From an uncultured Candidatus Saccharibacteria bacterium (lineage in GTDB: Bacteria > Patescibacteriota > Minisyncoccia > Phycocordibacterales > UBA5272): a DNA stretch of 61,557 nucleotides. Under the pieces are notes generated by a model, which saw only the letters and a program-made list of their open reading frames with translations, ran no database searches and had not been told where the DNA came from. The stretch is taken from contig CAYXKW010000002.1 in assembly GCA_964464695.1 (NCBI GenBank), positions 28,379 through 89,935 on the forward strand, given 5' to 3'. This document shows, one piece after another, positions 6,953 to 26,371 of the stretch. Position numbers and translations under genes: made by a program. Every line of letters starts with the position of its first letter. Position 1 is the first letter of the stretch.

Positions 6953-7882
6953 CTATACCTTTAAATACTTTCGAACTGCCAAGAAAGAAGATACTACGGT
7001 AAGTACAGATCCGAAAGCAAGTAATGTAAGAGTGAGCTCTACGAAATGCGCTAAGTAAAAATCATTTATATTTAGTCCTTCAAAGAAGAAGACTGTTTTC
7101 TTTGTTACCCAAACAGTTGCTGGGAAGAAAATAACAAGCGTTGTAATAGTTGCAACTATTGCATAGAGAAGTGCTTCTACAATAAATGGACCACGAATAA
7201 ACATATTAGATGCTCCTACAAGCTTCATCACCGCAATTTCATCTCTATACACGAAGATAGCCAGACGGATTGTGTTGTACACTATCATACAACTCATAAG
7301 CACGAAGAGAATTGAAAGCCAGAAACCAACGGTATTCGTCCACCCAATAATACTATTTAATTTATCAATACTATCTTTTATTTGATAGTAGTTTACTTTA
7401 TCAACAACACTTTTGTTATCCCCCAACAATCCTGATTCATTGTTTAACTGGTCTGCAATAGCGGCATAACGTGACGTATCTTTTGCAATCACTGAAAGTG
7501 AGGCACCGAATGGATTATTCCCGAGCTCGTCAAGCGCTTGAAGCGTGAGCTGATCTCCCTCATGCTTTTTCTTGAAATCTAGAAGTGCTTGTTCTTTAGA
7601 AACATACACAACATCCTTAACATCACTTAGTCCAAGTAATTTTGCTTTAATAGTAATAGCTTGCTCTTCTGTAGCGTCAGTTGTTAGGTATACACGAACA
7701 TCTACTTTACTCTTTACTTGCTCAAGCGTGTAATCAAATACTGCTCCGAATAAATAAAAAGATGTGACAATCGAAAGAGTAATCGTTAAAATAAAAATCG
7801 AAGAAAGAGACACCGTTCTATTACGGTAAAAACCTCGTAGCCCTGCCAATATTGTTCTTTTCCACAGTACTGTTTTCATCAT
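6953..7882 (-). CDS. ftsX: Cell division permease FtsX
   Basis: 4-TM FtsX architecture with a large first loop, immediately downstream of ftsE. Confidence 0.85.
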   Translation of the reverse strand: MMKTVLWKRTILAGLRGFYRNRTVSLSSIFILTITLSIVTSFYLFGAVFDYTLEQVKSKVDVRVYLTTDATEEQAITIKAKLLGLSDVKDVVYVSKEQALLDFKKKHEGDQLTLQALDELGNNPFGASLSVIAKDTSRYAAIADQLNNESGLLGDNKSVVDKVNYYQIKDSIDKLNSIIGWTNTVGFWLSILFVLMSCMIVYNTIRLAIFVYRDEIAVMKLVGASNMFIRGPFIVEALLYAIVATITTLVIFFPATVWVTKKTVFFFEGLNINDFYLAHFVELTLTLLAFGSVLTVVSSFLAVRKYLKV

Positions 7883-8653: not shown

Positions 8654-9760
8654 CTATTTTATAAAGGTGTCGATAGATCTTCGTAACGTCCTAACTTCTA
8701 CGGGTTTAGCATGCCCCAACCTAAACAACATAACTTGGTTTTCAGTAACATTGTCAAAATCATTAAAACACTCTTTTTCTAGTTGTTCAGCTTCAATTAG
8801 CAATTTTTTATGTCGCTCTGAAAGAGCTCCCATTTCAAGTAATTTTTTACGAAGTAAAAATATAGGTAAACCTGCTTGTGGCTGAAGTGCTATACCAGCA
8901 TGAGTTGCTTCGAGCCAAACTCTTTCTAGCGCACGCCCAGCTTCTATAGAATATGCTGGGAGAATTTTAGGAATTGTTACTAGAACAAGAGTAGAGGATG
9001 ATATTATTTCATTGTATACAAAACGAGCAACAATATACGAAAAACCAAAATAATTAAAAATCTTCATGATTTTCCAAGGGTGAGTGTACTTAAGAAAGAA
9101 TTCACCGAACCAGCCCGCTTGTAAGGTCTCAACTGGAAGTCCATCTTTTTTTCTGTAAGCACTTTTTTGACTAAACCGTAGAAGCTTTTGTAGATGAACA
9201 TGAAGATCTTTTCTTTCTGATCGTATAATATCTACTAAATATACAGCTCGTGCTAGTTTTTTTATCCTCATTTTTTCAGATACCTCATGCCAAGTTACAT
9301 TTGGGAAATGAACTATCGCTTCGCGTAGTTTTTTAAGTTGCTCATTTGATACTTTTACAGAACTATACTGACGTCGATTTGTTCTTCTGGTCCAAATGGC
9401 ATCAAACAAATGATCGCAAGGCTCATCAGATAGCTTAAAAGTAAGTATAGCGGCAATATTATTTGACTCTTTATTCTCATAAGAAATAAAAGTACTTAAT
9501 CCATATGAACTTGCAGCTACTATACAATTCTCAATAACAGCGCCTAACGAAAGGAGTGAAGGTATCTGCCTAAAATTTAAATACGACATATCTAATTCTT
9601 CATGAACATGTATTCGAATTTGATTCTCTTTTATTTCAAATATCCACGGCTGAATGTTGTCACCTGACGGCGCCTGAATACCTGCAAATATAATTGCACG
9701 AATCACAGAATCTGAAATAGGAAGCTCACGAACTTTTCTTTCAGATTCATGTATTGTCAT
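8654..9760 (-). CDS. Acg-type two-lobed nitroreductase family protein (paralog of 20492-21553)
   Basis: GIQAPSGDNIQPW ... WTRRTNRRQY ... RALERVWLEATHAGIALQPQ. Confidence 0.7.
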   Translation of the reverse strand: MTIHESERKVRELPISDSVIRAIIFAGIQAPSGDNIQPWIFEIKENQIRIHVHEELDMSYLNFRQIPSLLSLGAVIENCIVAASSYGLSTFISYENKESNNIAAILTFKLSDEPCDHLFDAIWTRRTNRRQYSSVKVSNEQLKKLREAIVHFPNVTWHEVSEKMRIKKLARAVYLVDIIRSERKDLHVHLQKLLRFSQKSAYRKKDGLPVETLQAGWFGEFFLKYTHPWKIMKIFNYFGFSYIVARFVYNEIISSSTLVLVTIPKILPAYSIEAGRALERVWLEATHAGIALQPQAGLPIFLLRKKLLEMGALSERHKKLLIEAEQLEKECFNDFDNVTENQVMLFRLGHAKPVEVRTLRRSIDTFIK

Positions 9761-9777: not shown

Positions 9778-10653
9778 CTACAGCTTTTTTTCGGCTTCAA
9801 GGAATCCGTCTATGTGACCTTTCGCAAGCACTCCTTCTATATCACTTGTCTCAAAATCTGTTCGATGATCCTTGACCATTTTGTATGGATGAAGCACGTA
9901 TGAGCGTATTTGATTCCCCCACTCAATTTCTGTTGTCTTACTAATTTGCCGTCCTTCTATTTCTGCTTTTCTTTTTTCCTCTTCAAGTTTAAATAATTTT
10001 GATTGTAGAATTTCAAGCGCCTTTTGTTTATTCTGTTCTTGTTGTCGTTCAGTTGCTACATGTACCGCTATGTTTGTTGGAATATGGATAACACGCACAG
10101 CAGTCTCGCGTTTGTTAACATTCTGTCCACCAGGACCTGAGGACTTTGAAGTTTCTATTCTAATGTCGTCCGGTGAAATAGTCTGTCGCTCAGCAGGAGG
10201 TACAACAGGTAATACTTCTACCATTGTAAACGAAGTATGACGCTTAGCTTGCGCGTTAAATGGTGATATACGAACAAGACGATGAACACCTGATTCATTT
10301 TTAAATGTTCCATATACATTTTTACCGGTTACCTCAAGTGTTAGATTTCTAAACCCACCGTGATCGTTTCTATTATCATGTAACACCAAGTATGAAATAC
10401 CATGAGAAGAAAAATACGCGTCATACATCTCAAAGAGCATTCGTACAAAATCTTCGCTATCATCTCCTCCAGCGCCTGCCAAAAAAGTAATGATTGCATT
10501 TCCTTTATCGAGTGCCCCGACTCCTTCTTTTCTATCTTTTAAGTCTTTTAGTACGCGAATGGTTTCTTGAGCTTTTTCTTTATCATTCCAAAAATCAACT
10601 TCATTCATGCGAGCCTCTAATTCCATTATTTCCTGGTCGAGATTTGGTTCCAT
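9778..10653 (-). CDS. prfB: Peptide chain release factor 2 (short N-terminal domain, single frame)
   Basis: SPF motif (RISPFNAQ) and GGQ motif (SGPGGQNVNK). Start taken at MEPNLDQE (ATG complement 10651-10653). Confidence 0.9.
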   Translation of the reverse strand: MEPNLDQEIMELEARMNEVDFWNDKEKAQETIRVLKDLKDRKEGVGALDKGNAIITFLAGAGGDDSEDFVRMLFEMYDAYFSSHGISYLVLHDNRNDHGGFRNLTLEVTGKNVYGTFKNESGVHRLVRISPFNAQAKRHTSFTMVEVLPVVPPAERQTISPDDIRIETSKSSGPGGQNVNKRETAVRVIHIPTNIAVHVATERQQEQNKQKALEILQSKLFKLEEEKRKAEIEGRQISKTTEIEWGNQIRSYVLHPYKMVKDHRTDFETSDIEGVLAKGHIDGFLEAEKKL

Positions 10654-10716
10654 ATCTACAGTATACCAAATAACCATCATTTGATTTGTTATCTGATATA
10701 CGTATACTTAGTAGAC

Positions 10717-13798: not shown

Positions 13799-13819
13799 TA
13801 CTCAAACAGACATTTCAAG

Positions 13820-13892
13820 AGCCGTTGAGCAGGATTGAACTGCTGACCTCGTCATTACCAATGACGTGCTCTACCAACTGAGCTACAACGGC
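13820..13892 (-). tRNA. tRNA-Thr (anticodon GGU), no encoded CCA
   Basis: Reverse complement GCCGTTGTAGCTCAGTTGGTAGAGCACGTCATTGGTAATGACGAGGTCAGCAGTTCAATCCTGCTCAACGGCT folds as a cloverleaf. Acceptor GCCGTTG/CAACGGC, anticodon stem CGTCA/TGACG with loop TTGGTAA, T-arm CAGCAGTTCAATCCTGCTG-like. Confidence 0.9.
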
Positions 13893-15741: not shown

Positions 15742-15813
15742 ATATGTAATTGTTTGTATGCAGTAAGTGTATCAATCTATTTCATTAAGATGACTAAAGT
15801 TATTCACAGAAAA

Positions 15814-15922
15814 TAGCACATAGCTTTTAGCTGTTCGCTCTTAGCAACTCAAAAGCGGTGCCTAAGGCACCGCTTTTGAGTTGTGTGTAGCTAAAGGCTA
15901 ACAGCTAACACCTAAAGGCTGT
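15814..15922. promoter_or_regulatory. 15-bp perfect hairpin flanked on both sides by heptad-phased TAGC / GCTA units
   Basis: tagcaca tagcttt tagctgt tcgctct tagcaac (15814-15848). Stem ctcaaaagcggtgcc / ggcaccgcttttgag (15848-15880). CTA recurs at 15891, 15898, 15905 and 15912. Confidence 0.6.
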
Positions 15923-15923
15923 C

Positions 15924-16223
15924 TTATGCCTTTACAGCTTCTTTCTTCTGAGGAGTCTTCTTAGGAAGAACGTTTATCTTCTTTCCAGTAAGAATTCCTT
16001 TTGTAACAAGTAAATTAAATGCAGTAGGAGTAGTTTGTGCTCCAACTGACATCCAATGCTTGATACGATCAGCTTTCGCTTCAAAAATACCAGCCTTTAC
16101 ATTATATGTTCCAACAATCTCAGCAAACTGAGATGTCTTAGCCTTGAGTGTACTTTCGGTAACAATGAGGCGGAAATGTGGGTCGTTCTTGCGTCCTGTA
16201 CGCTGTAATCTGATTTTTAACAT
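15924..16223 (-). CDS. rpsP: 30S ribosomal protein S16
   Basis: MLKIRLQRTGRKNDPHFRLIVTES. Start at ATG complement 16221-16223. Confidence 0.9.
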   Translation of the reverse strand: MLKIRLQRTGRKNDPHFRLIVTESTLKAKTSQFAEIVGTYNVKAGIFEAKADRIKHWMSVGAQTTPTAFNLLVTKGILTGKKINVLPKKTPQKKEAVKA

Positions 16224-16291
16224 GTGACGTATTCTACCACAAGTAGGCAAAAAAGAAAAGCCTTTGCGGTAAGACCCTTAAAATAAACCAA

Positions 16292-16717
16292 CTAAGAAGT
16301 CTCACTCTTCCCAATTTCTGCATGTACCTTTTTATGATAAAATTCATCCACTAAAAAATTAACCTTATCGACGAGCTGTTTTCCTGAGTAATCAACCTTT
16401 AAAATAACATCAGTTGCACCATCCTTTAAAGCTCTATTAATGGTATCAACATCTGAAATATTAGAGCACACAACAACAGGAATTGATAATCCTCCTGTTT
16501 CTTTCATTTTTCGAAGAAATCCAAAGCCATCCATTCCAGGCATCATCAAATCAAGCAAGATTACATCAGGAAGTTCTTTAATAACACCATTAACTCCTTC
16601 GAGACCATTTTCCTCAACAACAACGATGTACCCATGCTTTTCAAAACTGTGTTTATATATTTCCTGAAGATCTTTATTGTCTTCAATGATCATTATTTTT
16701 TTCTTTATCTCTGACAT
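16292..16717 (-). CDS. Single-domain response regulator (CheY-like receiver, no output domain)
   Basis: KKIMIIEDNKDL ... DVILLDLMMPGMDGFGFLRKMK ... VVVCSN ... ILKV. Confidence 0.85.
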   Translation of the reverse strand: MSEIKKKIMIIEDNKDLQEIYKHSFEKHGYIVVVEENGLEGVNGVIKELPDVILLDLMMPGMDGFGFLRKMKETGGLSIPVVVCSNISDVDTINRALKDGATDVILKVDYSGKQLVDKVNFLVDEFYHKKVHAEIGKSETS

Positions 16718-16739
16718 ACTGTGTTGTAATAACTTTAAA

Positions 16740-18320
16740 TTATCTGGCTTCTGGGAACTTAATATAAAATTGGGAACCCTTATCTCTTCCTTCTGACTCT
16801 GCCCAAATTTTACCTTTCTGTGCTTCTGTGAATTTCTTTGCCAAAAAGAGACCTAGCCCACTACCTAAAATGTTTACTTTTTGTAAATCTGCTCGTGAGA
16901 ATTCTTTAAACAATGATGGCATCACTTCTGGCTCAATACCGACACCAGTATCTGCTACTTTAATAGTAACATATCCATCTTTACTGGTAACAGAAACATC
17001 AATAGAGCCTTCTGGCGTGTACTTAATTGAGTTATCAATAATATTTATGATAATTTCTTTTAGCTTTGCCTGATCTGCATAAATCATTCTCTTGTGACTT
17101 GTGTCCAGAGCCGTAGTGAGATGTATACCTTTTTGTTCTGCGTGAATCTTAAAGATGGCAAGAATCTCATTAACTGTAATCAAAACGTCGAATTTCGTAG
17201 GAATATACTCCATTTGTCCTAATTCAATTTTTGATTTATCAAGATACTCCGCGAGCAGTGTCGTAACATCATTTCCCGCAATCATAATTTTCTGTAACAA
17301 ATCTTTTACAGGATTACTAATTTCTCCTTTATCGCCATCAAGTAACATTGTGGCATACCCTCGCATAACCGTAATAGGTGTACGAATCTCATGAGTTGCA
17401 AAACTCATCAATTCTGATTTTTGTTCATTTGCAAGTTCAATTTCAAAAGTATTACGAACAAGTTGGATACCGATAACAATAGTTAGTAGAAATACTAAGA
17501 TACGCAACAATAACTGCTCAACCGTTTCTGCAAGAATAAGCTCAATGAGCGAAACAACGCACAAGAAGAACGTAAAGAGCCCTGCGAAAATGTTCTTTAC
17601 GTGGAATAGCTCAACGATATATATTGCGTAGGCAGTAAATACAATAACTGGAAAAATAAAGAGTGCTCCGTATGGTACAAAATCAAAATTCTTAAACCCA
17701 ATTGGAAGAATGAAACTAAAGAGAAGGAGGAGTCCTGCTGTTAGTGACATACCCGTAAACATAAGCATCACTTGCCGACGCTCATCTCCTTTTGTTTCCC
17801 CTATTCTCTTAAAGAGAACCACAATACCCGCAACGAAAAATGAAAGTGTAACCACTCCAGCCAAAATAATTCCCTGGCTTTTTTCAGGACTGATAGCCTC
17901 ATCAGGAGAGATGAAGTTACTAAACTCTCGGAATACAAAAGGTATAAGAAGAAGCGATGAGGTAAAGAATGCGAGTGGCAATAGTACATATCTATGCCAT
18001 GGAGGTAAGACTTTTTGTTCATTTGGGAAAACATACGCAAGCTGAAAGAATGCATATGCATGCCAGATAGACAAGAAAATATGGAAACGAAGAGCGAGCA
18101 GTGCATCAGCTGGATCAGTAAACTTATACAAAAAATAGTTTGAAATACCCCATAAAATGGTAACGTATGAAAAGAAAAGAAAACTCCTGCTAGTGATACT
18201 ATTTCTACTTCTGTAGAGAACTGTCCATGCAAGAACTAGAACTCCAAGAACCGCAATACCGACACCAATCAGGTCAAACTTTACTCCTGAAAGTATTCCG
18301 TCAAAATATGTTGAATCCAT
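16740..18320 (-). CDS. Polytopic sensor histidine kinase (about 8 TM, HisKA + HATPase_c)
   Basis: H-box FATHEIRTPITV, N-box IIDNSIKYT, G-boxes DTGVGI and GSGLGLFLAK. N-terminal 290 aa are all hydrophobic helices. Confidence 0.85.
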   Translation of the reverse strand: MDSTYFDGILSGVKFDLIGVGIAVLGVLVLAWTVLYRSRNSITSRSFLFFSYVTILWGISNYFLYKFTDPADALLALRFHIFLSIWHAYAFFQLAYVFPNEQKVLPPWHRYVLLPLAFFTSSLLLIPFVFREFSNFISPDEAISPEKSQGIILAGVVTLSFFVAGIVVLFKRIGETKGDERRQVMLMFTGMSLTAGLLLLFSFILPIGFKNFDFVPYGALFIFPVIVFTAYAIYIVELFHVKNIFAGLFTFFLCVVSLIELILAETVEQLLLRILVFLLTIVIGIQLVRNTFEIELANEQKSELMSFATHEIRTPITVMRGYATMLLDGDKGEISNPVKDLLQKIMIAGNDVTTLLAEYLDKSKIELGQMEYIPTKFDVLITVNEILAIFKIHAEQKGIHLTTALDTSHKRMIYADQAKLKEIIINIIDNSIKYTPEGSIDVSVTSKDGYVTIKVADTGVGIEPEVMPSLFKEFSRADLQKVNILGSGLGLFLAKKFTEAQKGKIWAESEGRDKGSQFYIKFPEAR

Positions 18321-18405
18321 AATATAATTAAATAATGAAAATAAGTCTAGATCTTCCTAGTACTAAGTATATACGGAATCAAGGAAATGTCGTGTGTGTA
18401 ACTAT

Positions 18406-18816
18406 TTAGTCTGAAATAGGTCTCGTGACATTTTTATGCTTACTTGCGTTCCCTTCCAAGATAAGATTCATCTTTTGAACTAGCTCCTTCCCTGAATAAT
18501 TAACCTTAAGTAATACTGCAGCAGCTCCTGCTTGCAAGGCCTTATCATGAGTCGCTTGATCAGATAAATTAGAGCAAACAACCACCGGGATATTAATACT
18601 AGTATTTTCTTTCATCACACGAAGAAAATCAAAACCATCCATGTTCGGCATCATTACGTCAAGCAATATGATGTCAGGCTTCTTATCTGTTACTTCTGAT
18701 ATTCCAGATAGCCCGTCTCCTTCAATTACTACTTCGTAGCCAGCAGCTTCAAAGTTAATTGTATAAATCTCTTGGAGACTTTTATCATCTTCGATAATCA
18801 TTATTTTCTTTTTCAT
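18406..18816 (-). CDS. Single-domain response regulator (CheY-like receiver, no output domain)
   Basis: KKKIMIIEDDKSL ... DIILLDVMMPNMDGFDFLRVMK ... VVVCSN ... LLKV. Start at ATG complement 18814-18816. Confidence 0.85.
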   Translation of the reverse strand: MKKKIMIIEDDKSLQEIYTINFEAAGYEVVIEGDGLSGISEVTDKKPDIILLDVMMPNMDGFDFLRVMKENTSINIPVVVCSNLSDQATHDKALQAGAAAVLLKVNYSGKELVQKMNLILEGNASKHKNVTRPISD

Positions 18817-18861
18817 ATTTATATAGCGTAAGTATATACCTACCACTGCAATAAAACCACT

Positions 18862-20487
18862 TTAGCGAACAGTCGGCAAAGTGACCGTAAATAATGAACC
18901 TTTCCCTACCCCATCTGAGCTAATGGTAATTAGTCCATGATGAGCTTGGACAATTTCATGCGCAAGATATAGTCCTAGACCTGAACCACCACTATTTAAA
19001 ACCCCTCCTTCACCACGTGAAAATTTGGTGAATAATTTTGCTTTTGTTTCTTTGGTAATACCTATCCCTGAATCCTGTACAGAAAAAATAATCTGTTTAC
19101 TGACTGCGTCTCTGTGTAGCGAAACTTTTACGAAACCTTCTTTCGTATACTTGATACTATTGTCTATAAGATTAAGAAACACTTGTTTTAACTTAACGCC
19201 GTCGACGTTGAGCACAAAAGAATCTGCTTCGTCTAAAGTAGTTTCAAAAGAAAGACCTTTATCCTGTGCTGCGATTTTCATGTCACTCATGAGATCCTTA
19301 ACAACTATTTTAATATCCGTCTCTTCAAAGACATACTTCATGCCTCCTTGTTCAATTTTTGTTACATTCAAGAAATCCTCCACAACAGACGCGAGACCTT
19401 GAGCAGATGTAAATATGTGTCTAACTATTTCATTTTGTTTTGGAGTTAAATCACCAACCACCCCATCAGTAAGCGTTGAAGCATATCCCTTTATCACTGT
19501 AAGTGGGCTACGAAGTTGATGAGAAGCTAGTGAGATAAATTCAGATTTAAGTTTATCAAGAGATTGCAATTTTTCATTTGCTTCTTCAAGATTTTCTGTA
19601 AGGTGTTCCAGTGTTGAAATGTTCTTGATAAATTGAATACTGATAAGTAGCACAAACAAGAAAATACCAACTCGTAGTAATAGCTGTCCTGTATTTTCTG
19701 CAAAAATAACTTCTACAAACGTTGCAATACACAGTGCAAATGCCATGAGTGAAGCACCTAGATTTTGTACTTTAAAAGCCTTATGTTTAAAAATTGCATA
19801 TGCAGTGAAGACTGAAAAAGGTAAAAAAGTGACGGCCCCTAGAGGAATAAACCTTAAATCTTCAAAGACTGCAGGTAAAATAAGATTAAACGTAAACAAC
19901 AACAGAAATGTGATGATTGCACCAACTAAGATAAGTACAAAGGGGGTTTTCTCTCCTTTTTTTGCCTTAATAATTCTTCTAATTAAAAATATGAAACTTG
20001 TAACTATGAGTGAAATCGCAGTGAGAAGTAGTACCACAATCCCCTTTCCAACAATAGGCTCCGGTACCTCATTGACAAGTTGTACACCTGAAAAAACTAA
20101 ATCGCCAAAGAGCGCCCACAATGAAAAGATTGTAATGTAAGGAATGAGAATAAACTTATACCAGGTCGGAAATGTAACTTTTTCTTTTGGGAAAACATAC
20201 AGAAAATTGAAAAAAGAAAATGAATGCCAAAAACCTAGGAAAATTGTTATTTTCCAAGCCTGAAGAAATATATCTGGATCACGTGTCTGCGAACTACTGT
20301 AATTGAAAAAACTCCAAAGAATTGTCACAGAACAGAAAATAATAAACGAAACATTTGTAATACTTTTTGCATTACTAATGTACACAATAAAACCTAGGAG
20401 CCCAATTGCTGCGATTGTAATCCCAACACTTAACAAATCAAGATTACTAAATGATATATTTTGGATTAATTCGATAATTCCTGACAT
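18862..20487 (-). CDS. Polytopic sensor histidine kinase, paralog of 16740-18320
   Basis: H-box LASHQLRSPLTV, N-box LIDNSIKYT, DSGIGI, GGSGLGLYLA. Same multi-TM N-terminal architecture. Confidence 0.85.
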   Translation of the reverse strand: MSGIIELIQNISFSNLDLLSVGITIAAIGLLGFIVYISNAKSITNVSFIIFCSVTILWSFFNYSSSQTRDPDIFLQAWKITIFLGFWHSFSFFNFLYVFPKEKVTFPTWYKFILIPYITIFSLWALFGDLVFSGVQLVNEVPEPIVGKGIVVLLLTAISLIVTSFIFLIRRIIKAKKGEKTPFVLILVGAIITFLLLFTFNLILPAVFEDLRFIPLGAVTFLPFSVFTAYAIFKHKAFKVQNLGASLMAFALCIATFVEVIFAENTGQLLLRVGIFLFVLLISIQFIKNISTLEHLTENLEEANEKLQSLDKLKSEFISLASHQLRSPLTVIKGYASTLTDGVVGDLTPKQNEIVRHIFTSAQGLASVVEDFLNVTKIEQGGMKYVFEETDIKIVVKDLMSDMKIAAQDKGLSFETTLDEADSFVLNVDGVKLKQVFLNLIDNSIKYTKEGFVKVSLHRDAVSKQIIFSVQDSGIGITKETKAKLFTKFSRGEGGVLNSGGSGLGLYLAHEIVQAHHGLITISSDGVGKGSLFTVTLPTVR

Positions 20488-20491
20488 AGTA

Positions 20492-21553
20492 TTACATTAT
20501 ATATTCTACTATAGGCTTTACTCTTTTCGCTACTGCAGTCGGCTCACTTGCCTTCCCCATTCTAAAAATAAACCCAATATGTGAATCCTCAGCTTGAAAT
20601 ATTTTTACAATATCAATATATGACTTTTGAATCAAATCAACATGCTCACCAGAAAAATCTCCAGTCCCATTATCCTCAATATGCCCCCTAAGATAGATAG
20701 TTCCATTACATGGGTGCATAGCAATACCATGCGCAGTAGCAGTGAGCCATACACGTTGTAGCGTTCTCCCAAGGTTCACATAGTCCTTATTAGTTGTACC
20801 TTTCATACGAAGGGCACCATATGAGCCTGATGCTGCATACTTTTCTCCATTTTCTTTGCTTATCATTTTCGAAACTTTCAAAATTCTATTAAGTAATGTG
20901 AGTACAATCCAGTTCTTAAATAACTTAACACCTTTTAATTGATGTGGAAGGAATTCAAGTGTATCAATATAAAAACCCCCTGCTTTATCCTCATCTTTCT
21001 TGTTCCACAAAATATGATCGTAAAAAAAATCATGAAGTTTCTTGTTTTCAAAAAGTACTCGTTCATTCATCGCAAGTGCTACACCTAGTCGTTCCATATG
21101 GTGCTTATCATCCACGATAGAAAAAGAGTTATAACCAAGACTATCGGCAGCGTCATGTAAGGCCTTTTTTTCTACCACTGTTAATGTTTCTCCAGTAAAA
21201 TCTTTTCTATTGGTGCATCTGCTGTAGACAACCTCATAGAGTGGGTCTTTAGGAGTTTCTTTATGTTTCTTGAACAAAATATCAGCGACATGTTCGTGAT
21301 TACCGTTATGCGGGAATACTATAATATCTACTTCATATCCATATTCCTTCGCACTCACTACAATATTTTCCATAAGAGCACCATGGGCCATATATGACCC
21401 TTTTTGCTTTGAGTTATAGAGTGACAGGTCTGCTTCAGGGAGATTAAAAATAGAGAGTGTCTCACCATGAACTTTAAATTTCCATGGCTGGCAATTCTCA
21501 CCGGATGGAGCCTGAACGCCATCTACGATTATTTTTTCAATGACATCGTGCAT
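20492..21553 (-). CDS. Acg-type two-lobed nitroreductase family protein
   Basis: GVQAPSGENCQPWKF ... YSRCTNRKDF ... LQRVWLTATAHGIAMHP. About 350 aa, roughly twice a plain nitroreductase. Confidence 0.7.
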   Translation of the reverse strand: MHDVIEKIIVDGVQAPSGENCQPWKFKVHGETLSIFNLPEADLSLYNSKQKGSYMAHGALMENIVVSAKEYGYEVDIIVFPHNGNHEHVADILFKKHKETPKDPLYEVVYSRCTNRKDFTGETLTVVEKKALHDAADSLGYNSFSIVDDKHHMERLGVALAMNERVLFENKKLHDFFYDHILWNKKDEDKAGGFYIDTLEFLPHQLKGVKLFKNWIVLTLLNRILKVSKMISKENGEKYAASGSYGALRMKGTTNKDYVNLGRTLQRVWLTATAHGIAMHPCNGTIYLRGHIEDNGTGDFSGEHVDLIQKSYIDIVKIFQAEDSHIGFIFRMGKASEPTAVAKRVKPIVEYIM

Positions 21554-21565
21554 GTTTGTATATAA

Positions 21566-22753
21566 TTATAGGCCAAATATTTTTCTGAATGTTTCTGCAG
21601 CGTCCTGTCTTTGAGTAACTTCGTCTGGTTCATTATACGTCGGGATCAAAAGTTCATCCATATTAATAAGTGAACGGCTATTCACAAGAGGTTGGTTATT
21701 TGCAATTTTTCTTATACAGTAAGCAATTGAAGCGCCATTAACAATTGCAGCTCCTCCTAGCTGTGGCCATGAGACAATTGTCTTACCCATCTGAAGAAGC
21801 GACTCTTGCATTTTTACGGTAACATTTTCTACACCGACGCATTTTGTAGCCATCTTGCCAATACCAAACTTGTCAAGTTTAGTGAGTGACTCATATGATA
21901 AGTCATCTCCCATTTTCCCGTGGAAATATTCTACTGGCTCATCATGGTCGTATCTCTCAACATCAATTACAGCATTATCACCATTATCCGTCCCCATGAG
22001 TACAGGGATTTTATACTGCTGAGCCTTTTCACGAATAAGATATTTAATTGCAATATTATCAAGCTCATCAACAACAACATCAAGTCCATCAAAAAAGGCA
22101 TCTATATTTTCAGGAGTAAGACCATCTCTATAAAGTTCAATTTTCATGTATGGATTTATTTCATACATTCTGCGAGCTGCCATCTCTACTTTTAAAACTC
22201 CAAGATTATCTACGCCCATCAAGATACGGTTAGTATTAGAGAGAGCTAGCCTATCCATGTCTGCTAGCTTTATATGTTTAGCACCCCCCTGAAGGGTGAG
22301 TAAAAAAGCGACACTAGATCCGATACTTAAACCACCAATCCCAACAGTTGTGTTATAAAAATTTTTCTGTTCTTCTTCATTAATCAAATTTTTATTTCGT
22401 GCTGTCCTTACTGATTGAAAATCAGACTCCTTAAGAACATGAACAAGCTTGGAGGACCATGGAAAATATATCCAATTCCCATCCTTATGGATTGGTTTTT
22501 CTGATGCCAAAGCTGTGTAGTATATTTTAAATTCTTCTTTAAAAGTTTGAGTGTACACTTTAGTTGGATTCTGTATCCCAAAAAGTTCTAATTGTTGTTC
22601 TTCGTAATCATCAACAGAAACTTGAATCTTTCCGCTCTCAAAAAGCTGTGTAACAGCACGTTCATGTTCTTCGTTATTGAAATCAAAAATCACTGGTTCT
22701 GCGGGCGCTGTATCTCTTTTTGAAACAAGAAACTCTTCAAGATTGTGTGGCAT
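21566..22753 (-). CDS. ThiF/MoeB/E1-like adenylyltransferase family protein with ~130-aa N-terminal extension
   Basis: VGIGGLSIGSSVAFLL ... IKLADMDRLALSNTNRI ... DVVVDELDN ... PVLMGTDNG. Confidence 0.75.
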   Translation of the reverse strand: MPHNLEEFLVSKRDTAPAEPVIFDFNNEEHERAVTQLFESGKIQVSVDDYEEQQLELFGIQNPTKVYTQTFKEEFKIYYTALASEKPIHKDGNWIYFPWSSKLVHVLKESDFQSVRTARNKNLINEEEQKNFYNTTVGIGGLSIGSSVAFLLTLQGGAKHIKLADMDRLALSNTNRILMGVDNLGVLKVEMAARRMYEINPYMKIELYRDGLTPENIDAFFDGLDVVVDELDNIAIKYLIREKAQQYKIPVLMGTDNGDNAVIDVERYDHDEPVEYFHGKMGDDLSYESLTKLDKFGIGKMATKCVGVENVTVKMQESLLQMGKTIVSWPQLGGAAIVNGASIAYCIRKIANNQPLVNSRSLINMDELLIPTYNEPDEVTQRQDAAETFRKIFGL

Positions 22754-22830
22754 GGTTATGGATATTTACTTTTCTTAAGTGTACCATGCAAACAAAAGAG
22801 AAGAAGTTTTCTTTTTTGTGGGGAGGAAAG

Positions 22831-24357
22831 TTACTTATTGACCCAATTCTGTTTACCTGCAGCCCTAAAATATAATTCATGCCCACGTGGCCAAAAAATA
22901 ATCTTTGGATATATTCGGTCTCCTAAGTGAAGAGATAGTCTTGTGTACTCTGTACTTTGAGATAGGAGTGCCTCATAGATTATTTGTAGTGTTTTTTTTC
23001 TAATTGAAGACGTCATCTTCACGTTTGATTTAAGTTCTACATTTATTTCGAGGTATTGGTCTTCATTTTCATCATTTTTTGTGAACATTGTAAATTTACC
23101 TGTTACATACTGAGAAAGGTCTTTTGAGAGTAAGCCTTTTTTAATAAACTCAGGATATATAATTGCACCGTAAAAACTCGCAGAAAAGTCAGAACGCTCA
23201 TAGACATACACAAAGGGTAACTCAGTAATAGTATCTTTAATTCCTGCTAATGTAATTTCTACATCCAAATCTACTCCAACATTTTTAAAAATAGCTCGCA
23301 TCTCATCATAGGTATACACGCCGCCGCTATCTCCTATTTCATAACGGACAAGAGGTAACACATTATCTCCAGTACAATAAATAGAGCCGTTAACTGACTC
23401 AAAATTTATAAAATCTGGTATGTATTGTGCTAAAGTTGGCAACCTTAATGCTTGGTCAAATAGTTTTTCATAAAGGACTGTATTAGTAGTCGCCAATCTT
23501 CGAATAAGAACACAGAGTGGGGATTCTTGTGCCATTGTCCCTAAATCAGCACTTCCATACACATTCATGATATCTCTATAGATATCTTTAACACCTACAG
23601 CTTCAGTAATATAGTCTCTAAATGTCTCAGAAAATCCTTCTGCTGCAAATATTATTTTAAGATCAAAATCTTTCCAAGCAATACCTGCTTCAGCTCCTTC
23701 GTCTATCACATCTTTTACAAATGGAGGATATCCACATAAAATAATCTGATCAAAGTGCGGTGCTAGATTTTTAAATGTCTGAAAAATCTCATTTTTACTT
23801 ATTCCAGGAGTGATAATAGTAAACGAATACCCATGTTCAGTAATATGTTTAAATGCTTGGTAGGTTAGCAACCCTCCAATCCATACCCCCATTCCAAAAC
23901 AATTAATTACCAGAGTTGATTTTTTGTTATGTACTTTTGAGGAATTAAGAAACAACTGATGTGATACTGCGGATTGTAGGTCAATTGAAGATGTTCGTGG
24001 AAAGTAAAACGGCGCCCCAGTTGACCCTGATGTAGATGTCATAACGAGCGAGTCGTGTACTAGTGCTCCTTTTTTACACAAGCTATTCCAAGGAAATGCA
24101 CGCAAATAATTTTTTTTAGTAACTGGGGGGACAGTTGCAAATTCACTGATTGTTTTTATAGTCTTAGGATTTTTTCCTGATTGAGTGACAAATGTCTGAT
24201 ACGCCTCAACCTCACGCATAGTTTTTGAAAAGGTTTTCAATAATTGCTTTTTAGATATTTTTTTCCACTCTGTACTTTTTTTAGAATAAATATCATCCAA
24301 AACACTATCAAAGAGTTCTTTTTTTTGCTTATGACTATGTGTGAGTAAACGTTTCAT
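22831..24357 (-). CDS. PaaK / coenzyme F390 synthetase-like adenylate-forming enzyme
   Basis: VPPVTKKNYL ... MTSTSGSTGAPFYFPR ... YGSADLG ... LVRYEIGDSG. Confidence 0.7.
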   Translation of the reverse strand: MKRLLTHSHKQKKELFDSVLDDIYSKKSTEWKKISKKQLLKTFSKTMREVEAYQTFVTQSGKNPKTIKTISEFATVPPVTKKNYLRAFPWNSLCKKGALVHDSLVMTSTSGSTGAPFYFPRTSSIDLQSAVSHQLFLNSSKVHNKKSTLVINCFGMGVWIGGLLTYQAFKHITEHGYSFTIITPGISKNEIFQTFKNLAPHFDQIILCGYPPFVKDVIDEGAEAGIAWKDFDLKIIFAAEGFSETFRDYITEAVGVKDIYRDIMNVYGSADLGTMAQESPLCVLIRRLATTNTVLYEKLFDQALRLPTLAQYIPDFINFESVNGSIYCTGDNVLPLVRYEIGDSGGVYTYDEMRAIFKNVGVDLDVEITLAGIKDTITELPFVYVYERSDFSASFYGAIIYPEFIKKGLLSKDLSQYVTGKFTMFTKNDENEDQYLEINVELKSNVKMTSSIRKKTLQIIYEALLSQSTEYTRLSLHLGDRIYPKIIFWPRGHELYFRAAGKQNWVNK

Positions 24358-24424
24358 TATAACTGTTGAGACAACTTTACTAGTTTAGTTCTAATTGTGT
24401 AACAAGACAAATGACAACAAATAA

Positions 24425-26371
24425 CTATATGACTAATGTATAATCAATAACTTTTAGTTCAAGATTAGCGTTCTTAACTTTTATTTTTACAGGTGTGCCG
24501 ATTTTGTATTCTACGCCAGTACGTTCTCCGAACACTCGTCCACCTTTTTGGTCATAGTTATAAAAGTCATCGCCTAAATCACGAAGTCGTATCATACCTT
24601 CACACTTACTTTTCTTTTCTTCAACAAAGATTCCCCACTCAGAAACACCTGATACCATTCCATCGAACTCTTCACCAATTCGATATGACATGTACTCGAC
24701 TTGCTTGTACTTAATACTACCCCGCTCAGCATCAGATGCTTCCTTTTCACGACGAGATGCCTGCATACATAGCTTTTCGTAGAATCCTCTTTCCTCTACC
24801 TTTGGATAATTCTTATCAAGCACTTTCATGAGAAGTCGATGTGTAAGCACGTCTGGATAACGGCGAATCGGAGATGTGAAGTGTGAATAGAAATCAAAAG
24901 CAAGACCGTAGTGTCCGACGTTATTAGTACTATAAATAGCTTTTGCCATCGAGCGAGTAATATGAACCTGAAGGAGAGCTTTTTCTGGCCTATCTCCCAT
25001 TTTTATAAGGAGGTCATTTAAATCTTTTGATGGAATAAGTCCGTCCATAAATCTCACTGTGTACCCAAGTCCCTTAATGTATAAATTCAAGTCATGCATC
25101 CTATCTGGATCTGGTTTATCGTGAATACGGTACACACAAATTGCATTTCCTTCACCATTAATATCTTCTTGAGTCTTAGTAATAAATTTACTGACGTATT
25201 TATTTGCTAGAAGCATATACTCTTCAATTAATTTATGAGTATCACCACGTGTCTTGGTATACACATCAATCGGCACACCTTTTTCATCTAACTTGAATTT
25301 AACCTCCTCTGTTTCAAGCTGTAACGCGCCATTATCAAAGCGCGCTTTGTTTAATTTTTTAGCTATTGTATTTAAAATCTCAAGCTCTTCAAAAAAATCC
25401 CCACTCTTTGTATCGAGTGTTACCTGAGCATCTTCATAGCTATATCTTCGGTGTGAATTAATAAGTGAGCGCCCATACCATTCATTGTGAACATTCCCTT
25501 CGGTATCTAGCTCTAGGACACATGACATAACCAACCTGTCCTCACCCTGCACAAGTGAACACAGATCATTTGAAAGCACTTCTGGAAGCATTGGAATAAC
25601 TCGGTCAACAAGATATACAGATGTTTCTCGCGCGATTGCTTCTTGGTCTAATGCCATTCCGTCGCGTACATAATATGATACATCTGCAATGTGTACACCT
25701 ACTTCGAAATTACCATTTGGAAGTTTTTGGAATGAAATAGCATCATCAAAGTCTTTTGCATCAATTGGGTCAATAGTAAATGTAGGAACAGCTCTGAAGT
25801 CTCGTCTATCTTTCTTATCTTCCTCTGTAATTCCACGCGACTTGATACTATTTGCTTCTTCATTTACTTCTTTTGCATGCTCATCAGAAAATCCGCGTTC
25901 AAGTGCGTAAGCTAGCATTTCTGCATTATTATCTCCAGGCTTCCCTAAAATATTTGTCACTTTTCCAATTGGAGACTTTTTTGCATCAGTCCAATCAGTA
26001 ATCGCAACTATTACTTTCATACCGGTTTCTGCATCCATTCGTGCGTTATTTGGAACAATGATATCGGTATACATTCTCTTATCATCAGGCACAAGAAAAC
26101 ACATACCATTTTCTACTTCAAGAATCCCTGCATAACCCTTACGGCCTCGTTCGATAATCTGCGTAACACTACCGTATAGCTCATCTTCTCCTTTTTGATT
26201 CTTATGCTTCCCAAGAAGCTCCACCTCAACATGGTCCCCTTGTAACGCAGTATGGAGATGTGAATGGTCCACAAAAATAGCCCCTTCTTTGGATTGTTCA
26301 AGATCTGACACCCGAACGTACCCATCTTTTTTAGAAGTAATACTTATTTGCCCTGTAAAAAGTCTTTGCAT
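24425..26371 (-). CDS. rnr: Ribonuclease R (RNB family exoribonuclease with C-terminal S1 domain)
   Basis: IDPIDAKDFDDAISF, RVIPMLPEVLSNDLCSL, HYGLAFDFYSHFTSPIRRYPD, C-terminal S1 (FDGMVSGVSEWGIFV). Confidence 0.9.
   Translation of the reverse strand: MQRLFTGQISITSKKDGYVRVSDLEQSKEGAIFVDHSHLHTALQGDHVEVELLGKHKNQKGEDELYGSVTQIIERGRKGYAGILEVENGMCFLVPDDKRMYTDIIVPNNARMDAETGMKVIVAITDWTDAKKSPIGKVTNILGKPGDNNAEMLAYALERGFSDEHAKEVNEEANSIKSRGITEEDKKDRRDFRAVPTFTIDPIDAKDFDDAISFQKLPNGNFEVGVHIADVSYYVRDGMALDQEAIARETSVYLVDRVIPMLPEVLSNDLCSLVQGEDRLVMSCVLELDTEGNVHNEWYGRSLINSHRRYSYEDAQVTLDTKSGDFFEELEILNTIAKKLNKARFDNGALQLETEEVKFKLDEKGVPIDVYTKTRGDTHKLIEEYMLLANKYVSKFITKTQEDINGEGNAICVYRIHDKPDPDRMHDLNLYIKGLGYTVRFMDGLIPSKDLNDLLIKMGDRPEKALLQVHITRSMAKAIYSTNNVGHYGLAFDFYSHFTSPIRRYPDVLTHRLLMKVLDKNYPKVEERGFYEKLCMQASRREKEASDAERGSIKYKQVEYMSYRIGEEFDGMVSGVSEWGIFVEEKKSKCEGMIRLRDLGDDFYNYDQKGGRVFGERTGVEYKIGTPVKIKVKNANLELKVIDYTLVI

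Follow-up and report, generated by a model that had tools for sequence, protein, structure and literature searches.

The oxazolone synthetases characterised between 2020 and 2025 are OxzB of Pseudoalteromonas rubra (bioRxiv 10.1101/2020.06.11.147165), the Mycobacterium tuberculosis pair of TyzB (a ThiF protein) and TyzC (a nitroreductase-superfamily flavin-dependent oxidase, FDO), which makes N-acyl-tyrazolones (PMC10404671), and TrzS, the product of Rv1355c, which cyclises N-acyl-tryptophan in an ATP-dependent reaction and then desaturates it (PMC12856293). Their partner in every described oxazolone cluster is an N-acyltransferase that resembles FeeM or acyl-homoserine lactone (AHL) synthases and uses acyl-coenzyme A (acyl-CoA), namely OxzA, TyzA or TrzA. 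The trzAS genes adjoin cyclic di-GMP (c-di-GMP) genes; the authors of that study consider that oxazolones are perhaps signals and call their physiological role the main unresolved question (PMC12856293). Here we describe a seven-gene cassette at positions 16292-24357 of a stretch of 61,557 nucleotides (nt) from an uncultured Candidatus Saccharibacteria bacterium (the whole stretch is referred to below as the window), which we read, with a probability of roughly one in two, as a ligase-fed, CoA-independent oxazolone-type pathway with a dedicated and functionally coupled histidine kinase of nine transmembrane (TM) segments. An earlier note, made from the sequence alone, had singled out these seven same-strand genes, their gaps and their motifs, all of which are borne out by the translations and coordinates of the open reading frames (ORFs; lengths in amino acids, aa):

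G1, 22831-24357 (-), 508 aa: PaaK-fold adenylate-forming (ANL) ligase, proposed to be a CoA-independent acyl-amino-acid (amide) ligase
G2, 21566-22753 (-), 395 aa: ThiF-like protein with the N-terminal domain of the family, putatively the ATP-dependent cyclase of an Rv1355c/TrzS-type oxazolone synthetase that is split in two
G3, 20492-21553 (-), 353 aa: two-lobed Acg-like FDO of the nitroreductase superfamily, putatively the FDO half of the split synthetase
HK1, 18862-20487 (-), 541 aa: polytopic histidine kinase of intramembrane type with about nine TM segments
RR1, 18406-18846 (-), 146 aa from GTG or 136 from the first ATG: single-domain CheY-like receiver
HK2, 16740-18320 (-), 526 aa: HK1 paralog with a HisKA_7TM N-terminal region
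RR2, 16292-16717 (-), 141 aa: single-domain CheY-like receiver

From G1 to RR2 the intergenic gaps are 77, 12, 4, 15 (45 from the first ATG of RR1), 85 and 22 nt, with HK1 beginning 4 nt after G3. The translations contain TSTSGSTGAPFYF in G1, VGIGGLSIGS...LADMDRLALSNTNR in G2, and APSGENCQPW, SRCTNRKDF and RVWLTATAHGIAMHP in G3.

G2 and G3 as halves of an oxazolone synthetase

The NCBIfam 'Rv1355c family' model NF005901 describes a ThiF-nitroreductase fusion of 722 positions with a cutoff of 476 bits. Comparison with this model revealed that G2 covers positions 6-352 (312.9 bits, E 4.1e-93) and G3 positions 375-712 (177.2 bits, E 5e-52), and because the two match successive parts of the fused enzyme, the window carries an Rv1355c-type enzyme split at the linker. 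Alignment to a plasmid-encoded Rhodococcus fusion annotated 'Rv1355c family protein' placed G2 against it over residues 11-334 (35% identity, E 3e-65), N-terminal domain included (WIYFPW opposite WIHYPW), and G3 against its residues 371-644. The roughly 130 N-terminal residues of G2, which had been left unassigned, are therefore covered by NF005901 from position 6 and aligned to the N-terminus of the Rhodococcus enzyme, such that the domain is a family feature common to TrzS, a small-molecule enzyme, and is no evidence for a peptide clamp.

Scores on other models fit the same placement. G2 matches ThiF (PF00899) at 89.5 bits in Pfam and reaches 65 bits on the fusion model PRK14851 versus 313 on the Rv1355c model, while models of other ThiF families (MoeB/ThiF/TcdA-type) give at most 72 bits, far below their cutoffs of 159-449. 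We rejected a MoeB/ThiF sulfur-carrier adenylyltransferase on these scores together with the absence of a conserved small partner ORF. G3 scores 33.4 bits on Nitroreductase (Pfam), 179.9 bits on PRK14851 and 126.3 bits on the Acg family model NF047509 (cutoff 199).

The residues expected in both active sites are retained. Across 71 Patescibacteria orthologs of G2, residues G141, G145, D165, D167, N173, N175, R176, D232 and K237 are 100% conserved and span the nucleotide loop, the arginine finger and the motif aspartate. D232, within DELDN, is aligned with the EECD aspartate of the Rhodococcus enzyme and was equated by motif with Asp217 of M. smegmatis TrzS, whose D217A variant is inactive (PMC12856293). 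In 65 G3 orthologs the same complete conservation holds for P16, S17, N20, Q22, P23 and W24 of the N-terminal flavin motif and for R112; the TrzS FDO residues Arg540 and Gln651, which lie near the FMN/substrate pocket, have no equivalents in G3 that could be assigned with confidence at 20% identity. Since ATP-site and flavin-site residues are invariant, G2 and G3 both look catalytically competent, and we consider it very probable that they belong to the oxazolone-synthetase family. The kinship suggested earlier with ThiF-nitroreductase fusions such as Rv1355c thus stands, but these are no longer of unknown function, as Rv1355c is TrzS (PMC12856293), and where the earlier note could name no described system of this composition, TrzS, OxzB and TyzB/TyzC now name two of the three enzymes. 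The oxazolone synthetases are closer than the analogies that it drew with McbB/McbC and MccB/PaaA.

An AlphaFold2 (AF2) model of G2 (pLDDT 86.2) has AclA, MoeB and ThiF as its top Foldseek matches, with PaaA (5ff5, rank 7) and MccB (3h5a, rank 37) further down at TM-scores of 0.44-0.47 and an rmsd of about 10 Å, over alignments longer than the core ThiF matches. The solved structure closest to G2 is PDB 9egb, the ThiF-type AclA of Tenacibaculum discolor, which was crystallised with substrate and released in 2025; our literature search on the AclA reaction found no relevant paper, and AclA may be another ThiF relative that cyclises a small molecule. For G3, the sole PDB relative by sequence is Acg (2ymv), in line with the Acg-type, two-lobed nitroreductase that the earlier note had described.

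Relatives of both proteins also occur in other settings. An exhaustive search with G2 returned homologs in 929 representative clusters at E <= 1e-30, in split and fused forms. On a plasmid of Streptomyces sp. NBC_01426 (L162, 5920-7694), an unfused Rv1355c-family ThiF matches the N-terminal half of NF005901 only, at 425.9 bits, and is followed by a GNAT-family gene and not by a nitroreductase (NTR), a further variant of the family. Within the window itself, 8654-9760 on the minus strand encodes a second two-lobed nitroreductase/FDO paralog of 368 aa that shares 27% identity with G3 and is a strong match to PRK14851 over its NTR half (330 bits, positions 319-675 of 679); its neighbours are FtsX (6953-7882) and a release factor gene (9778-10680), and no ThiF partner is close by.

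A four-gene core with a membrane kinase

To follow the cassette beyond the window, an alignment of G1 was searched against one genome per GTDB species, which revealed G1 relatives in 303 genomes; the best 80 of the 303 carry Patescibacteria or unclassified labels, except two metagenome-assembled genomes labelled Gammaproteobacteria. Of the 51 informative ligase-anchored loci (each extending 5.6 kb or more downstream of G1), 45 have G2, G3 and a polytopic kinase on one strand, 39 of these in the order G1, G2, G3, HK; a receiver comes directly after the kinase in only 7 of the 51. The reciprocal scan used the kinase membrane domain alone against metagenomes; a broad alignment of 28 sequences was too poorly conserved to scan, and a narrower one of 8 sequences returned 80 loci. 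Here the 49 informative loci (at least 4.2 kb upstream) held G1, G2 and G3 together in 36 cases, an NTR in 46 and none of the three enzymes in 2. Unbiased clustering of neighbourhood ORFs across 160 loci recovered four core families, the NTR (123), the ligase (118), the kinase (115) and ThiF (115).

Spacing within these loci is tight and operon-like, with median gaps of 20 nt between ligase and ThiF (91 pairs), 8 nt between ThiF and NTR (91 loci) and 4 nt between NTR and kinase, and kinase orthologs sit directly after the NTR, or after a methyltransferase-like gene (family c27), across Patescibacteria. Because the arrangement is found again in dozens of divergent genomes, with flanks that vary among lineages, it lies far beyond chance. 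The four-gene core, kinase included, is Patescibacteria-wide, such that the linked trio posited from one window and its link to membrane kinases are both real, the latter in the two reciprocal scans, and the survey of neighbourhoods that the earlier note had proposed for the trio ended in four families. By comparison, adjacent receivers and the HK-RR duplication are lineage-specific. The two duplicated pairs are present in the window, but an HK-RR, HK-RR layout was found only in close relatives (L001, L002, L003, L006, L081 and L083, plus L082, which is cut within HK2), with one kinase as the core elsewhere; the RNase R-like and S16 flanks of the duplicated layout are confined to the closest relatives.

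HK1 carries HisKA (55 bits) and HATPase_c (89.4 bits) domains in Pfam, as does HK2, and the two are 35.8% identical over 530 aa. The membrane region of HK2 matches HisKA_7TM (PF16927) at 30.7 bits (cutoff 28.6), whereas HK1 falls below detection by this model; PF16927 is also carried by the cassette kinases of L166 and L167. Family-averaged hydropathy gives nine TM segments joined by loops of at most 17 aa, and the positive-inside rule an N-out/C-in topology, from which it follows that the kinase is without an extracytoplasmic sensor domain. Conserved residues of the TM region include W58, N62, Y63, N201 and Y230. The earlier count of about eight helices thus becomes nine and the N-terminal region of HK2 is recognisable after all, while the want of a separate sensor domain holds. 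A profile search of the PDB with the kinase TM domain gave no match. The receivers, 56.3% identical to each other, contain Response_reg (74.7 bits in RR1, 79.4 bits in RR2) and no other Pfam domain, in agreement with CheY-like proteins that have no DNA-binding output.

The ligase and the proposed source of its acyl donor

G1 has no match in a Pfam scan, AMP-binding included, and reaches the PaaK equivalog models NF041878 (46.7 bits, cutoff 700) and TIGR02155 (40.3 bits, cutoff 646) through its N-terminal domain only. Its AF2 model (pLDDT 84.9) is that of a two-domain ANL enzyme, with top Foldseek matches to PaaK1 and PaaK2 (E 1.5e-21, TM-scores 0.58/0.68; PaaK1 is 2y27), BT_0428 and ClxA, as anticipated when G1 was first called PaaK-like. 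None of 25 homologs deviates in the P-loop T107-P116, in Y267-A270, in D343 or in the C-terminal K502, and as modelled G1 is a PaaK-fold ANL ligase with intact ANL motifs. ClxA, a PaaK-fold protein of the closoxazole pathway, is described as a CoA-independent amide ligase (PMC12519233, PMC9400959), so that direct transfer from an acyl-adenylate to an acceptor is within the reach of this fold.

Evaluating the 160 neighbourhoods further revealed recurrent accessory genes:

Single-domain receiver: 39 of 160 loci, in many of them upstream of the ligase
Leu/Phe/Trp-type amino-acid dehydrogenase (best model ScyB, below cutoff): 38 of 160 loci, in 32 of which it is the gene next upstream of the ligase
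Methyltransferase-like protein c27, about 305 aa: 35 of 160 loci, between NTR and kinase
HisC-like aminotransferase: 16 of 160 loci, together with the dehydrogenase in 1 locus only
TrmB-type regulator: 14 of 160 loci

The dehydrogenase and the aminotransferase each lie directly upstream of the ligase in most cases, and the tailoring genes (c27, Methyltransf_11 and an alpha/beta hydrolase) vary among loci; with the TrmB regulators, this variation lends the loci a resemblance to small-molecule gene clusters. Two natural fusions tie further activities to the core. In P0323, a G1-type ligase (42% identity to G1, E 9e-142) is fused to a G2-type ThiF, in the order dehydrogenase, fusion, alpha/beta hydrolase, HisKA_7TM kinase and receiver, and in P0300 a G2-type ThiF is fused to an MIO-type aromatic amino-acid lyase/aminomutase, which passes the tyrosine 2,3-aminomutase and histidine ammonia-lyase cutoffs; a G1-type ligase, an NTR and a HisKA_7TM kinase come after the fusion. 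Read-through artefacts were considered as a source of these fusions and seem unlikely, as both are open under genetic code 11 in normal cassette context, although each comes from a single contig. Together with the recurrent dehydrogenase and aminotransferase neighbours, the fusions point to an acyl donor derived from an amino acid. The accessory enzymes all remove or move the alpha-amino group, which would leave a 2-oxo or unsaturated acid, a suitable acyl donor.

Other candidate partners were looked for in the same loci. No credible tblastn match to a TrzA/OxzA-type acyltransferase was found in the window or the 160 loci with, as queries, a 252-aa protein divergent from the Rhodococcus homolog (its identity as TrzA is a presumption) and the Streptomyces GNAT neighbour, and no FeeM/AHL-synthase-like N-acyltransferase is among the recurrent neighbours. 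The recurrent neighbours also include neither YcaO nor a protease or exporter, further paa genes or beta-oxidation genes do not recur, and no conserved precursor-like small ORF lies in or around the cassette at the 160 loci, where the recurring ones are antisense shadows or same-genome duplicates. A ribosomally synthesised and post-translationally modified peptide (RiPP) was rejected on this last result, which, with the low scores on MoeB/ThiF/TcdA-type models, agrees with the earlier view that the set fits neither a YcaO-type RiPP nor a cofactor pathway.

Several individual loci depart from the common layout. An alpha/beta-fold hydrolase takes the usual nitroreductase place in the cassette with the ligase-ThiF fusion (L166, 3767-4648), which suggests a variant pathway without the desaturation step. 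The NTR beside the kinase is a bona fide Acg-family member in L008 (14215-15237), L027 (14195-15205; 227.9 bits on NF047509, above the cutoff of 199), L061 and L068, and these Acg-type cassettes have TrmB regulators, a membrane protein or a Methyltransf_11 gene inserted between ThiF and NTR. Outside Patescibacteria, Nonomuraea gerenzanensis (NZ_LT559118.1, L163, 8428-10371) has a G1 homolog with 36% identity over 85% of G1 and no ThiF or NTR within 9 kb, so G1-type ligases are not universally tied to the pair there. A HisKA_3 histidine kinase lies upstream of it and a receiver-SpoIIE phosphatase downstream; G1-type ligases may be more generally linked to two-component systems. Tryptophanyl-tRNA synthetase (TrpRS) directly follows the cassette kinase in about 22 of 160 loci (L008, L013, L016, L017, L096, L104, L113, L126 and L160 among others), and tblastn found no TrpRS homolog in the window. 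This adjacency could be a hint of a tryptophan-derived product or lineage synteny; a Trp-specific product, argued from TrpRS and the ScyB-like dehydrogenase, was rejected as unproven, given the housekeeping block that follows TrpRS and a dehydrogenase score well below the ScyB cutoff.

As for the surroundings of the cassette in the window, GC content is even (35-42% in 2-kb windows) and the flanks are housekeeping genes, RNase R-like upstream and ribosomal protein S16 downstream as named from their translations, with an SMC-type ATPase and ATP synthase subunits further identified by Pfam. A promoter and terminator scan of 15800-24700 performed about as on shuffled sequence (26 versus 30.4 promoter-like and 7 versus 4.2 terminator-like matches) and found no terminator between any of the seven genes, which is compatible with one or two transcripts but not informative. 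The sole RNA gene detected in the 61.5-kb window is tRNA-Thr (GGT) at 13819-13892 on the minus strand, and no Rfam riboswitch or other structured RNA reached gathering thresholds there.

Proposed pathway, alternatives and comparison with known systems

In the pathway that we propose, a carboxylic acid would be supplied, in many relatives from an amino acid that is probably aromatic or branched-chain, by the neighbouring Leu/Phe/Trp-type dehydrogenase, the HisC-like aminotransferase or the fused MIO lyase/aminomutase, and in the lineage of the window presumably by scavenging. G1 would adenylate this acid and pass the acyl group to the alpha-amine of an amino acid without CoA, in place of the acyl-CoA-dependent N-acyltransferase of known systems; that G1 yields an N-acyl amino acid seems to us slightly short of an even chance. 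G2 would then adenylate the carboxylate of the N-acyl amino acid and cyclise it to an oxazolone, G3 would desaturate the C-alpha/C-beta bond, and methyltransferases or hydrolases would tailor the compound in some lineages. An oxazolone-type heterocycle as the product is an even call. As its sensing part is made only of membrane helices, the kinase would detect the hydrophobic product, or a membrane state caused by it, inside the membrane and would relay through single-domain CheY-like receivers by protein-protein contact, with the kinase-receiver pair duplicated in the lineage of the window (HK1-RR1 and HK2-RR2). The synteny strengthens the view that the module makes a signal which the kinases read, but this remains something that we infer; that the kinase senses the product is a tentative proposal and on balance doubtful.

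A number of points weigh against this pathway. We infer the product, the substrates and the CoA-independence alike from genes and models and not from chemistry, and synteny of the kinase proves linkage and not the identity of a ligand. Known FDOs of the oxazolone-synthetase family use O2, and many Patescibacteria are anaerobes. G1 is only 15-17% identical to any solved ANL enzyme and could be a CoA ligase, with an unrecognised protein performing the acyl transfer. Each half of the putative synthetase is under the NF005901 cutoff of 476 bits, and only the sum of G2 and G3 (490) exceeds it, as the model describes a fusion; identity between G3 and the actinobacterial FDO domain is moreover only 20%. 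Given a plain Acg-type NTR in some loci and a hydrolase replacement in one, the redox step may differ among lineages. Adjacent receivers occur in a minority of loci, none with an output domain, and the locus counts include near-duplicate contigs and are not fully independent.

It is also conceivable, if somewhat unlikely in our estimate, that the metabolite is aimed elsewhere, as an antimicrobial, a host-directed effector or a membrane component, and that the kinase senses another cue (contact with a host, envelope stress, or an aromatic acid or amino acid that stems from the host) and controls or coordinates production. Synteny would then report co-regulation and not a ligand, receivers that have no DNA-binding output and are often missing from the locus make a simple autoinduction loop not evident, and the TrmB-type regulators at 14 of the 160 loci could provide transcriptional control. 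An antimicrobial or stress-related role has also been considered for N-acyl-tyrosine derivatives and oxazolones, for which no receptor is known (PMC12856293). What speaks for the product as cue is that loops of at most 17 aa and no extracytoplasmic domain favour a membrane-soluble cue such as the predicted product, and that the coupling of NTR and kinase (a median of 4 nt, with the NTR upstream in 46 of 49 loci) is unusually strict for a mere regulator.

Two further accounts would change the chemistry itself. The trio might salvage or detoxify aromatic or branched-chain acids or amino acids, or make a cofactor-like compound, with G1 as a CoA/AMP ligase and the ThiF and NTR proteins performing other adenylation and redox chemistry. 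The nearest structures to G1 are indeed phenylacetate-CoA ligases, dehydrogenase and aminotransferase neighbours are typical of amino-acid catabolism, and the NTR subtype is variable and was once replaced by a hydrolase; yet G2 reaches 313 bits on the oxazolone-synthetase model versus at most 72 bits on any other ThiF family, the 160 neighbourhoods show no recurrence of a paa or beta-oxidation pathway, and a dedicated 9-TM kinase with methyltransferase-like tailoring genes fits biosynthesis better, all of which makes this account improbable. Modification of a peptide or protein, RiPP-like or ubiquitin-like, would have the N-terminal domain of G2 as a peptide clamp and the NTR as a dehydrogenase, as in McbB/McbC or MccB/PaaA, and it draws on the pairing of an E1 enzyme with a flavin dehydrogenase that is found in azoline RiPPs and on the long alignments of the G2 model to PaaA and MccB. 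These matches are loose, however, TrzS, whose substrate is N-acyl-tryptophan, has the same N-terminal domain, the spaces between the genes leave no room for a hidden precursor, and neither a conserved small ORF nor YcaO, protease or exporter genes accompany the 160 loci, such that we regard peptide modification as highly improbable.

Should the oxazolone-type pathway hold, its ATP-dependent ligase in place of an acyl-CoA transferase would suit bacteria with minimal acyl-CoA and fatty-acid metabolism, as is generally held of Patescibacteria. The accessory dehydrogenase, aminotransferase and MIO lyase/aminomutase predict the building blocks, such that the chemistry is directly testable, and the obligate, reciprocal linkage to one family of sensor kinases would offer a first candidate receptor for the oxazolone class. 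As Patescibacteria rely on hosts and possess only a small number of regulatory systems, a make-and-sense module with relatives in at least 303 species-level genomes would matter for their perception of partners or of population density. On the furthest reading, the candidate phyla radiation (CPR) would have in this cassette its first module dedicated to both the synthesis and the reception of a small-molecule signal, an autoinducer (oxazolone-type or N-acyl-dehydroamino-acid) that would be assembled from two units derived from amino acids, with no need of CoA, and sensed through a co-transcribed 9-TM kinase and a CheY-like relay. We hold this to be unlikely as it stands, but if true, oxazolones would gain a receptor and a function, and ultra-small episymbionts a cell-cell or symbiont-host channel. 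If the kinase only regulates production, the cassette would still be among the few conserved specialised-metabolite loci of the radiation. Our literature search found no paper on oxazolones, on ThiF with a nitroreductase or on the whole gene combination in Patescibacteria or the CPR; the cassette is widespread, previously undescribed and experimentally tractable, and could supply a new route to oxazolone-type metabolites.

Set beside known systems, the cassette is nearest to TrzA/TrzS (Rv1356c/Rv1355c) of mycolic-acid bacteria. G2 and G3 together span the Rv1355c profile, from the N-terminal domain through the ThiF ATP site to the two-lobed FDO, and both loci have signal-transduction neighbours, c-di-GMP genes at trzAS and the kinase here; a GGDEF gene also adjoins the Rhodococcus homolog, and this parallel is in keeping with the view of the TrzS authors that oxazolones are perhaps signals. 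Unlike TrzA/TrzS, the synthetase is split in two genes, with identities of 35% (ThiF) and 20% (FDO), a PaaK-fold ligase stands in place of acyl-CoA-dependent TrzA, a 9-TM kinase is an obligate neighbour, and the phylum is Patescibacteria. With TyzA/TyzB/TyzC the cassette shares separate genes for a ThiF cyclase and an NTR-superfamily oxidase, a third gene for the N-acyl amino acid (a role proposed for G1) and the expected logic of cyclisation followed by desaturation, but the third gene is an ANL ligase here and an acyltransferase in the Tyz and OxzA-OxzB clusters, for which no kinase is reported.

Likenesses to single components are looser. G1 resembles PaaK and ClxA in its two-domain ANL fold, P-loop and C-terminal catalytic lysine, where ClxA forms amide or ester bonds straight from the acyl-adenylate and can use amine or phenol acceptors, but it is only 15-17% identical to these enzymes, about 70-110 aa longer and far below the PaaK model cutoff (46.7 versus 700 bits). 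G3 shares the monomeric two-lobed nitroreductase architecture of Acg (Rv2032/MSMEG Acg, PDB 2ymv), whereas its score is below the Acg family cutoff (126 versus 199 bits) and better on ThiF-NTR fusion models. The kinases and receivers are like HisKA_7TM two-component systems in their HisKA/HATPase_c core, 7TM-type N-terminal region and receiver partner. In LuxM/LuxN-type systems, an autoinducer synthase gene lies beside a polytopic histidine kinase that binds an acyl-homoserine lactone in its TM region, and the likeness would be one of adjacent genes making a hydrophobic acylated amino-acid derivative that is sensed in a TM domain without a periplasmic sensor; unlike LuxM/LuxN, the cassette has no sequence relationship to them, its predicted product is oxazolone-type and not a homoserine lactone, its kinase is not a hybrid, and sensing is a proposal here. 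For the pair that cyclises and oxidises, the cassette is of the same kind as TrzAS, TyzACB and OxzAB, and what sets it apart is the feeding enzyme, the phylum, its split layout and the obligate kinase.

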